NCBI RefSeq assembly: GCF_054482525.1
Contig: NZ_CM137006.1
DNA: 64,000 nt
Reading direction: 5' to 3' (one strand)
The number at the start of each line of letters is the position of its first letter. Position 1 is the stretch's first letter. Below are positions 1 to 3,000 of this stretch, one piece after another. The position numbers were made by a program.

Positions 1-3000
1 TTTGCCTTTGGGCTTGGGCTTGGCTTCTGGCTACAATCTGGTAAGAATGCCGATGAAATTTCGGCTATTAAATCAGTTCATGCTGAACAGGTGAGGGCGG
101 TAACACCTGACAGTACCAGCGATTTACCGAGACTTTCTATTGATTCTTTCTCTCAGCTTGGTTTTGATGTTTCTGTTACGTTTGTTGACGCTAAGGGTAT
201 GAAGTACCAGTATTTTGATTTAATTAAAGATGGTTATTCCGTTGATATTAAAGATGCCTGCCGAATTGTTATCAGAAAAGGCCATTATTTACAAAGCGTC
301 ACCTGTCAGGAGTAATATTACTATGCGTTTATTTTGCATTGCCATCTTATTCATTTATTCTTTTTGTGTTTCTGCTGAAACTGTTAATCTTAATAATTCA
401 TCCGTTCGTTCATTTGTCCAGTGGTATTCATCAAAAACTGGTAAGCCTGTTATTGTTAACCCCGATGTTAAAGGCTCCGTAACAGTATTTAATGCTGATG
501 TTAATCCCACAAATATTGATGACTTTTTCAAATCTGTTCTGAATGCTAATGGATTTGTCATGCTTTCTGGTAATCCTGCGGTAGTATCTTTGCCGTCAAA
601 ATTACCGTCACAGATGGCATCAGACCCTGATGATTCCGATAATCAGTCTTATGACTCTTTTCCGCCAGAGCCATCCTGTCAGCCAGCGCCTGTGGCGCTC
701 ACTGTCAGAAATTTTAAGCTGACAAAAGTACGAGCGTCTGATGTTCAGCAACTGGTTAAAATTTATCTGGATTCGAATGGCGGGGGTAATGTCGTGGATT
801 ATCCCGGCAATAACTCCCTGATTGTATCTGCGCCTGACGAGCTACTGCCTGTTCTGTCCAATTTCATTAACTCAGTTGATGTTGCCCGTGATCAGGTACT
901 CATTCAATCGCTCATGTTTGAAACCAGTTTGTCTGATGGTGTTGATTTGTCATTTGCAGCTGGCTCTGCATCCGGCCATAAGGTGGCGGGGGGTTTTAAT
1001 ACTTCTGCGCTGGGTAATGCTCTTTCTACGGTGGGCGGCTCTTTTGGTATTTTTGATGGTAACGTGTTGGCGCTGTCTCTGCGTGCTGTCCAGAGTAATT
1101 CACGCTCTAAGGTGATTTCAACACCGCGCATTCTTACTCAGTCCGGTCAGACTGGTTATATTTCCGTAGGTAAGAATGTGCCGTTTATCACAGGAAAGGT
1201 AACGGGTGAATCTGCTGGGGTAAATAATCCGTTTCAGACTATCGAACGTCATGATGTTGGCGTTTCTCTCAAGGTAACGCCTGTTGTCATGGGGAACGGG
1301 CAATTAGTTTTGACCATCGATACCCGCGCCGATTCAATCAGCAATGATGACCAAGCATCTGATATTATTACTAATCAGCGCCAGATTCAGACCACTGTTC
1401 AGATTAAGGATGGCCAGACTCTCTTACTTGGTGGGTTGATTGATTCATCATCCAGCAATGCTGACCGTTCTGTACCATTTATCAGCAAAATTCCGGTAAT
1501 TGGCTGGCTTTTCAGGAGTAAAGCTGACAGTAATGAGCAACGCATTATGTATGTCCTGCTGACTGCTCATATTATTCGTGCGCTTTGATGGGGCCGTGGC
1601 GGGTGCGTTAAGCCCCGGTATGGCCCCATCAAGAGCCAGATTTTACGTCTCACCACGGAGCCTCTATATGGCCTTAAAACTGACAGGATATGAACAGAAA
1701 AACATCTTCTAGGTGATTCAATTACTTAGAGGTTTTTATGTCTGTAAAAAGTAGGGGCGCGATCGACTTCCTGGTGGTCGCCTGAAGTCTTACCGTCGTG
1801 TTGGTTCACATTTTACCAGTTGTTCCAAGTGGTTTGATAAATCACCGTCCTGGTATCGCAATATGATGATGACCCGGCCAGAGCGCCGTGAAGTCAGAAA
1901 GCTTCTCAATCAGGTTGTACGTGGCCGTGACGCTGACGGCATCGCATTTCCGGTCAGCAACAAGCCATTTGCATGGCGGTGGTGAACATTTTTAGCCGCT
2001 AAAACTTCATGCTGACGGAATTATCGAAAACCCCGTACAGCAACAAAACTTGTTTTTGTTGCTGTACGGGGTTGGCCAAGCCGCAACAGTACTCTATTTT
2101 TCTTTGGAGTTAATTGCGGCGCGGCTAGGGATGTATCAGACTTTAATCTTAACTACTTTTTCAGTGCCGGTCATAAAACTAACCAGCTTCTTGCGGCCAT
2201 CGGGATACTCTTTAATGACACATCCTTCTGGCGTATTTTTTTCAGCGTAATAAATAGGGACGCCACTAAGAAGACAGGCTCGGGCTGCTTCACCGACATC
2301 ATGTTCTAGTTGCTGCTCGAAAACAGTCAAGAACTCTGCTTCCTCTGATGGTGTCATTTCAGCTAAATATGATAAGTCCATAAATGCTCATGCCTTCTGT
2401 AATTCATTGCTTAGTAACAATGATGAACAGGCCTGATTGGTGAGGTCAGGCTGTTCACTTACTGCTGACAGACATTTGATTCTGATTCGTTTGGAGAAAC
2501 GGATGATTTTGAATCATTGTCGATAGTAACCAGTTGACGGCCAGTGTCAACGATCCCCGCCAGATTCTGCCATCCTTACCATTGGTGCGCATAATGTATA
2601 TTATGTTAAATGGAATTTGAGTGATGCGAAGCGATTTTCCAGTCGTCGTTATTACTTCAGGGTTCCAGAACATAAAGCCTCTCCTCTTTCATGATTGGCC
2701 TGTGCATACCGGATATAGGCTGGCAGGTTTGCCGTTTGCCGCATCTTCCCTGCGTTGAAGAGTCAGGCTGGCAAACTGCGTGCAAATGAACACCCCCTCT
2801 TTCTATCAACACTTCAGACAGCTTGCGGGAATGAGTTCACTCCGGTATCAGAAATGGCTACGCCTCAATGAAGCCAGGCGACTGATGCTGAATGAACATT
2901 ACGATGTCACCACTGCAGCCTATGCTGTCGGTTACGAAAGCTTATCCCATTTCAGTCGGGAATATTCGCGGATATTTGGAGAGTCACCTAAGAGAGATAT

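Follow-up and report, generated by a model that had tools for sequence, protein, structure and literature searches.

What occupies the space between the last morphogenesis gene of a filamentous prophage and the dif site at which the prophage is integrated? The question is raised by positions 1587-1985 of the window analysed here, a stretch of 64,000 nucleotides (nt) of contig NZ_CM137006.1 (RefSeq assembly GCF_054482525.1). A first-pass annotation had seen there an inverted repeat starting at the stop codon of the secretin gene pIV and, further on, an open reading frame (ORF) without a start codon, and had hesitated between a phage intergenic region and a decayed gene. A filamentous (Inoviridae) prophage has inserted at the Escherichia coli chromosomal dif site, and positions 1-2611 are its right arm; the stretch in question is the end of the prophage's long rightward operon. 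In our account, which we consider probable as a whole, this right arm carries a packaging hairpin followed by a leader and a hairpin over a Shine-Dalgarno (SD) sequence that would gate the small gene orf82, a module that a frameshift has inactivated in the window. Both features noticed at first stand, but three things had been missed: that orf82 starts at ATG 1738, that its frame is shifted, and that a leader mini-ORF and an SD-sequestering hairpin lie at 1668-1732.

The leader and hairpin upstream of orf82

The frame at 1755-1985 belongs to a conserved gene of 82 codons, of which it forms the 3' part, and the deletion of 1 bp has broken this gene, as the suggestion of a decayed gene had anticipated. 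The gene, orf82 (1738-1985, plus strand), starts at ATG 1738, preceded by the SD sequence GAGG at 1729-1732, and an equivalent coding sequence (CDS) of 82 amino acids (aa) is annotated by the Prokaryotic Genome Annotation Pipeline (PGAP) in the genomes APEC E19057 and CEA106S. Judged by sequence, length and synteny, orf82 is identified as the orthologue of YPO2280a of the Yersinia pestis phage YpfPhi, one of two ORFs adjoining attR of that phage and without predictable function (PMC4266046).

Comparison of the pIV-orf82 spacers of different phages revealed a second coding element. In 23 out of 23 unique close-family sequences, an ORF of 12-14 codons ending in G-Y-E-Q-x-D-I-F and a stop codon lies upstream of orf82. 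In the window this leader spans 1668-1712 on the plus strand (14 codons, MALKLTGYEQKNIF, plus TAG at 1710-1712), with an SD-like GGAG at 1657-1660, 7 nt upstream of its ATG. Its codons vary in the close family mainly at synonymous third positions (GGA/GGG/GGT, TAT/TAC, GAA/GAG, CAG/CAA, GAC/GAT, ATC/ATT, TAG/TAA). Particularly, the seven conserved codons show 607 synonymous versus 109 non-synonymous pairwise differences among the 23 sequences, while the other two frames at the same place give 43/947 and 42/940. This is the codon pattern of a short upstream ORF under purifying selection on its peptide. A longer ORF of 44 aa (1578-1712), opening with a GTG inside pIV, was discarded as a real unit: what the loci have in common is limited to its last 14 codons, which begin at the conserved ATG.

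The leader extends well beyond the close family. A metagenome scan with a distant subfamily (46-100% identity to its own query, about 30-40% to orf82) gave 80 loci, from which 63 unique upstream regions were recovered, 62 of them scorable (one locus lacks upstream sequence). An in-frame ORF ending in (H/G/N)-Y-x-x-(L/M)-D-I-F is present in 53 of the 62, a set in which the D-I-F frequencies are inflated by the search rule, and most of the others are recognisable variants. With the 23 of the close family, these 53 distant ones bring the detected leaders to 76. A residue outside the detection rule, Tyr at -7, is found in 71 of them; the start codon is ATG in 71 and the length 12-14 codons in 72. 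SD-like motifs lie upstream of the leader starts at 67% of the 76 loci, compared with 39% in shuffled sequences.

What follows the terminal Phe codon falls into two types. In stop-type leaders, close and distant, the next codon is TAG in 34 of 37 cases; leaders of the read-on type have a sense codon there, CAG in 28 of 39. The read-on tails, of 19-100 codons, overlap the main ORF out of frame and are unconserved; therefore the conserved unit ends at Phe. In the distant set the Phe codon lies 25-31 nt from the main start codon, and the window has 28 nt between them, a distance that puts the two P sites about one ribosome-width apart. As a separate observation, the codon after Phe toggles between amber TAG and CAG (Gln) by a single C/T change (L058-L137, environmental contigs; L004-L046). 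Of the three stop codons, TAG is the least used by most bacteria.

The end of the leader is also one arm of an RNA hairpin. At 1706-1732 (plus strand) a 12-bp stem with a 3-nt loop, of about -11.6 kcal/mol as RNA, holds the leader Phe codon and TAG in its 5' arm and the orf82 SD GAGG (1729-1732) in its 3' arm. Stems vary by lineage and stay complementary (CTAGGTA/TACTTAG, CTAAATA/TATTTAG, CTAAGTG/CACTTAG, CCAGTGT/ACACTGG, CTAGTTG/CAACTGG). In an alignment of 20 sequences, 90.9% of the cells are paired versus 38-58% with the partner slid, five pairs have both members substituted, and 500 shuffles yielded no values as high as those observed. Across the 76 loci the hairpin has a mean z of -4.4 and the SD is fully paired in 85%; in every locus the last codon of the leader and its stop lie within the 5' arm, with the stop, or the codon after Phe, at its base. 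This conserved, covarying structure is predicted to sequester the orf82 SD, and it is placed where a ribosome at the leader end would open it.

The combination of leader and hairpin persists among phages, plasmids and environmental contigs, including those whose proteins are no more than about 30% identical, and across these carriers the leader peptide of 12-14 codons is better conserved than the protein it precedes. The carriers include dif-integrating filamentous phages (Y. pestis YpfPhi, E. coli CUS-1), plasmids, and contigs rich in toxin-antitoxin-type genes. In some distant relatives (L112, L115, L122, L127; L053/L054; L055) the leaders are much shorter or different (MGAVF, MS, MYLLQEHF, each followed by a stop), and each ends in the 5' arm of a hairpin over the main start region; the architecture is older than the DIF peptide. 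In Rfam, nothing scores above the gathering threshold in window 1400-2700, and a literature search on this motif, and on arrest or leader peptides in prophages, found no description of the leader element. A conserved leader-hairpin module upstream of the YPO2280a family thus appears to be undescribed.

From this arrangement we infer that leader-translation-dependent unmasking of the orf82 ribosome-binding site is the most likely mechanism. A leader ribosome with Phe-tRNA in its P site and UAG in its A site would cover the whole 5' arm of the hairpin. The covered arm would free the SD and AUG of orf82, which lie one ribosome-width, 28-34 nt from P site to start codon, downstream, and translation of orf82 would be confined to the time that a ribosome spends at the leader end. 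In addition, and speculatively, the nascent Y-x-x-L-D-I-F chain may act like an arrest peptide and retard release or peptidyl transfer; this is suggested by the conservation of the peptide at the amino acid level whether a stop or a sense codon follows.

Several points weigh against this regulatory reading. The leader SDs are weak in many loci, and the inflated D-I-F frequencies of the distant set have been mentioned. The window hairpin at 1706-1732 is followed by TTTTT and scores terminator-like. The hairpin uses the Ile and Phe codons (AUC/AUU UUC) as its anti-SD strand, and some of the Ile-Phe ('DIF') conservation may therefore be at the RNA level. The protein offers little help: orf82 matches no Pfam or NCBIfam family at E <= 1 and 45 family members match none in Pfam at E <= 0.1, a profile search against Protein Data Bank (PDB) sequences gives no match, and the AlphaFold model of orf82 is of moderate confidence, with a predicted local distance difference test (pLDDT) score of 68.

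Three of these points, namely the anti-SD character of AUCUUC, the U run after the window-type hairpin and the often weak leader SDs, would also fit a different explanation, in which the mini-ORF is no cis-acting regulator, being conserved only as RNA or DNA (the anti-SD strand together with some further site) or encoding a free micropeptide of 13-14 aa, and the hairpin keeps orf82 translation low and constitutive or acts as a transcriptional attenuator. We consider this improbable. Outside the stem, the codons for Gly/His, Tyr, Glu, Gln and Leu show synonymous changes that leave their amino acids as they are, the start codon and the 12-14-codon length of the leader are conserved, the stop codon or the codon after Phe is always at the base of the 5' arm, and the U run is absent from most loci.

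A stronger version of the regulatory reading is that Y-x-x-L-D-I-F defines a new family of ribosome-arrest peptides. A pause with Phe-tRNA in the P site, before UAG or a sense codon (mostly CAG), would open the SD hairpin, and the module would act as a translation-state sensor timing the expression of a dosage-sensitive gene on mobile elements, lost in the window lineage. This proposal is tentative, and we would sooner bet against it than for it. Among known systems, PepNL, TnaC, ErmCL/ErmBL and SecM share with the orf82 leader a short upstream ORF with a conserved C-terminal peptide that ends at or next to an SD-masking stem-loop. PepNL, of 14 aa, arrests at its own stop codon and also blocks peptidyl transfer to some A-site tRNAs (PMC11890864), a double block paralleled by the stop or sense codon after DIF. 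None of these peptides has sequence similarity to the orf82 leader, and stalling is speculative here. Furthermore, the regulated gene encodes a small basic protein of mobile elements, not a resistance, secretion or metabolic function.

Another precedent is mok-hok of plasmid R1, in which translation of an upstream frame opens a structure hiding the start region of a small mobile-element gene. The likeness lies in translational coupling through a small upstream or overlapping frame and in a structure that hides the start of a small gene. In contrast to mok-hok, no antisense RNA partner was found here, the leader does not overlap orf82 in stop-type loci, and the hydrophilic, basic orf82 product is no membrane toxin.

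There is nothing unusual in a packaging hairpin of known type or in a phage gene with a frameshift. If the leader is an arrest peptide, however, it would be a compact and easily testable addition to a small class of regulators, and it would for the first time open to experiment YPO2280a, one of the genes at the ends of the filamentous phages of plague and K1 E. coli bacteria. In this regard, the review of YpfPhi names the functions of the terminal ORFs as an open question (PMC4266046).

The hairpin at the pIV stop codon

The gene pIV was called as an ORF of 421 aa at 323-1588 (plus strand; stop TGA 1586-1588), is intact in the twin assembly L027, and has as its counterpart in APEC E19057 (L001) a PGAP CDS at 7924-9189, 'secretin N-terminal domain-containing protein'. 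The 10-bp perfect inverted repeat reported at its stop codon is real: TGATGGGGCC (1586-1595, beginning with the pIV TGA) and GGCCCCATCA (1622-1631) are exact reverse complements. A repeat finder extends them to 19-nt arms, 84% complementary and 10 nt apart, in a 48-nt hairpin, and the whole feature spans 1582-1635 on the plus strand, with arms at 1585-1603 and 1614-1632 and the apex GGTGCGTTAAGCCC. Folded as single-stranded DNA, the 58 nt of 1580-1637 reach -23.3 kcal/mol, compared with -10.3 +/- 2.0 for 200 dinucleotide shuffles (z -6.55), none of which was as good. The hairpin is kept in related prophages, as its conservation at loci L001, L026, L027, L029 and L031 shows.

Alignment to filamentous phage sequences, which the first-pass annotation had proposed as a check, identifies the type of this element. 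The sole match among 50,697 phage records is Lineavirus I2-2, in which blastn aligns positions 2148-2298 (72% identity, E 7e-11) across the end of gene IV and into the annotated morphogenetic signal. The I2-2 record places this 'morphogenetic signal' at 2260-2330, with the end of gene IV at 2273, and the I2-2 hairpin has a z of -6.6. In IKe, the gene IV stop at 6151 is overlapped by a feature at 6141-6196 labelled 'stem loop structure pot. transcription termination, morphogenetic signal' (z -3.9). The hairpins of the window, I2-2 and IKe have a common 5' flank, GCGCTTTGA, and the apex GGTGCGYTA(A)GCCC, and their stems differ yet pair.

On the strength of homology and position, 1582-1635 can be assigned as a putative packaging (morphogenetic) signal of the IKe/I2-2 type. 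Such a hairpin would form in the packaged plus strand and mark the DNA for assembly and export. Like the IKe/I2-2 signal and hairpin A of the Ff phages, it is a long imperfect plus-strand hairpin starting at or overlapping the gene IV stop. It differs from the IKe/I2-2 signal in that the middle of the stem diverges and a leader-orf82 unit follows, not replication origins. The window phage, moreover, is a dif-integrating prophage, whereas IKe and I2-2 replicate as episomes and are not known to integrate. Other pIV lineages that bear orf82 (Morganella, Xenorhabdus, one Logan contig) have unrelated hairpins in equivalent placement, with compensatory differences among relatives. Because the GGTGCG of the apex resembles the XerC arm of dif, it was considered as a Xer site and rejected: it has no central region and no XerD arm, and the apex is shared with IKe and I2-2.

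One finding counts against treating the packaging hairpin and the orf82 module as a single arrangement. In phages of the CUS-1/YpfPhi type (L002, L012-L014, L028, L030 and others) the leader and orf82 lie 88 nt past pIV and there is no hairpin at the pIV stop. The two elements are therefore separable, and the packaging signal of these phages must be elsewhere. In this respect, pIV and the hairpin of the window are of the IKe/I2-2 type, unlike the CUS-1 type.

The hairpin could instead be mainly a transcription terminator or an RNA-stability element of the pIV operon, as the label of the IKe feature ('pot. transcription termination, morphogenetic signal') would allow. In the Ff phages, likewise, the gene IV terminator coincides with hairpin A. 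We give this alternative a small chance, since the sequence after the stem, AAGAGCCAGATTTTACG, has no T run, and the terminator scan made no call. In addition, because there is no promoter-like site between the hairpin and orf82, a strong terminator at the pIV stop would shut off the conserved unit of leader and orf82. Neither role excludes the other.

Loss of the module in the window lineage

The frame that had been described as lacking a Met is indeed open from 1755 to 1985, follows a TAG at 1752-1754, has its first ATG, GTG or TTG at ATG 1863, and ends in NKPFAWRW. It corresponds to codons 7-82, the last 76 codons, of MSVKSRGRDRLPGGRLKSYRRVGSHFTSCSKWFDKSPSWYRNMMMTRPERREVRKLLNQVVRGRDADGIAFPVSNKPFAWRW. 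What separates these codons from ATG 1738 is the loss of one base in the G run at 1754-1757: the window reads AGTAGGGGCG where APEC E19057 reads AGTAGGGGGCG, four Gs versus five in the intact copies. Translation from ATG 1738 in the window gives MSVKSRGAIDFLVVA and ends at TGA 1783-1785. The window copy is thus an orthologue within the YPO2280a family whose frame is no longer intact.

A second change affects the leader. Among the 76 leaders, the otherwise invariant Asp at -3 is replaced by Asn (GAC to AAC at 1701-1703) only in the window and its twin L027. Together, the frameshift and the D-to-N change inactivate the module in this lineage. Two lesions in so small a module, with the morphogenesis operon otherwise intact, point to specific decay of, or counter-selection against, the leader-orf82 unit.

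Short G runs are prone to read errors and slippage. We therefore weighed whether the gene might be functional in the window strain after all, the missing G being a read error in a homopolymer or a sign of slippage, programmed or phase-variable; we regard this as quite unlikely. The independent assembly UViG_2585427777 of IMG/VR (L027), which differs from the window by 2 single-nucleotide polymorphisms in 2330 nt (99.91% identity), has the same four Gs, and the D-to-N change is unique to the same lineage. The G deletion is the sole indel in 5577 nt compared with APEC E19057, over which pV, pVII, pVIII, pIII, pVI, pI and pIV are full length. Because L027 shares the deletion and the other genes are full length, we take the lesion to be real and no read error. 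As regards slippage, other lineages lack a G run at the lesion site (CEA106S reads ATAAGGCG), so it is not a conserved feature, and a run of four or five Gs is short for phase variation.

Least of all do we credit the idea that the stretch is an Ff-type intergenic region, with packaging signal and minus and plus origins, or the remnant of a replication-protein gene: the hairpin does match the first element of the IKe/I2-2 intergenic region, and to that extent the first-pass suggestion held, but similarity to I2-2 by blastn ends at the hairpin, only about 35 nt separate it from the leader ORF and leave no room for Ff-type origins (those of IKe lie at 6333-6599, roughly 140-400 nt past its signal), a repeat scan found no further strong hairpin before 2029, and the pII gene sits elsewhere in the intact prophage. 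The relation to replication proteins was not borne out either. All homologues of the frame at 1755-1985 are proteins of about 80 aa, and the frame has no similarity to replication proteins, with no Pfam or NCBIfam match to pII, Rep_trans, Phage_CRI or Phage_GPA at E <= 1.

The YPO2280a family and the end of the prophage

Close homologues of orf82 are mostly 82 aa long and 52-96% identical, and come from Salmonella, Pantoea, Brenneria, Xenorhabdus, Morganella, Klebsiella, Zobellella and Y. pestis. Strain NCTC5923 of the last carries two tandem copies of YpfPhi, each with a protein 83% identical to orf82. The gene is carried by 115 of 5426 complete E. coli genomes, UTI89 among them. The homologue of YpfPhi and CUS-1 resembles intact orf82 in its aa identity (83%), equal length and position after pIV next to attR/dif; it differs in that the window copy is frameshifted and in that the cargo neighbour orf81 is not the YpfPhi gene.

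An exhaustive HMMER search gave 59 representatives of the family at E < 1e-3, with the consensus MSxKxxxxDR..GR...PxWWRxLxxTRPxRRxxKxL...GxDxDGxxFPxxxKPxxYYW. The intact orf82 product is a hydrophilic, basic protein of 9.8 kDa with an isoelectric point of 11.6, whose only, weak match in PHROGs is phrog_12343 (E 4e-4). Relatives at 29-45% identity lie in accessory regions of plasmids and islands, near ParA, PIN, Gp49/HigB-like, Fic, helix-turn-helix and defence genes; by eye from the sequence, the recurring neighbours resemble RhuM-like, HigA, PIN and Fic proteins. A search for a conserved partner gene gave no candidate, the 101 neighbour ORFs of 63 distant loci falling into many small clusters of at most 5 members. 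Weak PADLOC matches to JetB in 4 of 45 members were judged compositional.

In the phages, orf82 is always the last plus-strand gene, after pIV or the last morphogenesis gene, although its carriers use four different replication proteins (II/X, Rep_trans, Phage_GPA and Phage_CRI). Wherever a related locus has enough sequence, orf82 is followed on the same strand by dif or a dif-like site at a distance of 281-2351 nt; Pantoea and Zobellella have dif almost directly 3' of orf82. Since the genes between the two vary, orf82 marks the inner edge of a cargo slot. The equivalent slot of CTXPhi holds ctxAB. A link of the wider family to Xer sites was rejected, as no dif-like sites were found near distant homologues.

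In the window, the slot ends at a perfect 28-bp dif site at 2584-2611 (plus strand; 0 mismatches, 0 expected by chance), which is attR, the right prophage junction. Between the convergent orf82 and orf81 lies a hairpin (2029-2073) with perfect, 100% complementary 20-nt arms and a 5-nt loop, probably a bidirectional terminator; it is kept in CEA106S with compensatory changes. The variable cargo gene orf81 (2136-2381, minus strand) encodes 81 aa with a match to phrog_21003 (E 4e-55); it is confined to the E. coli loci L001, L002, L027 and L030, and the Y. pestis loci lack it. A promoter-like TTGACA-16-TACTAT precedes the gene at 2523-2550, also on the minus strand. On the same strand, 2425-2521 gives a weak Rfam match to OrzO-P antitoxin RNA (22.8 bits versus a gathering score of 60, E 0.63), most likely by chance.

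The complete element can be read from the nearest complete genome, APEC E19057, which is 98.1% identical across window 1400-2700 and carries it intact between hipBA and dif. At the left junction, hipBA is followed by attL and then the regulator; the element starts with two hypothetical genes and the regulator on the minus strand, and continues with pII, pV, pVII, pVIII, pIII, pVI, pI (Zot), pIV, the 82-aa hypothetical (plus strand), the 81-aa hypothetical (minus strand) and dif. The attL (L001 1731-1830) is a hybrid site, GGTGCGCATAA-TGTACGACTCG-TTATGTTGAAA, beyond which lie a GC-rich hairpin and a second Xer-like site in inverted orientation. Together they make a forked attP of the CTX type, in agreement with the forked single-stranded attP proposed for YpfPhi (PMC4266046). 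The hybrid attL, the forked attP arrangement and dif define the element as a Xer-exploiting integrative mobile element of the CUS-1/YpfPhi kind.

Another small protein encoded beside the attP/dif end of a Xer-exploiting filamentous element is XafT (DUF3653), the Xer activation factor of the satellite phage TLCPhi (PMC6744903, PMC9226527). The likeness is one of position: orf82 (E <= 1) and 45 family members (E <= 0.1) have no match to DUF3653 (PF12375), the distant relatives occur in contexts without a recognisable dif-like site, and the window phage has a CTX-type forked attP. Attachment sites of this type integrate through XerC and are not known to need a XafT-like factor.

Two deposited plasmids also carry the gene. 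The circular NZ_CP128883.1 (L056, 9565 bp) is entered as an untypable plasmid of E. coli; its genes (regulator, pII to pIV, orf82) are those of a complete CUS-1-like filamentous phage, and it is likely an episomal replicative form. NZ_CP132684.1, a 248-kb Klebsiella pneumoniae plasmid (H73), matches orf82 at two places with 83% identity, which suggests a filamentous phage, possibly in tandem, inside a large plasmid.

On the chromosomal side of dif, the window has an ORF at 2780-3034, which PGAP treats in the near-identical APEC genome as a frameshifted, incomplete pseudogene of a helix-turn-helix-domain protein. From 3420 onward there follows an intact fimbrial operon (fimA major subunit, chaperone and an 883-aa usher) and then ydeS/ydeR/ydeQ; in CEA106S, the genome used for comparison, the usher gene is cut short.

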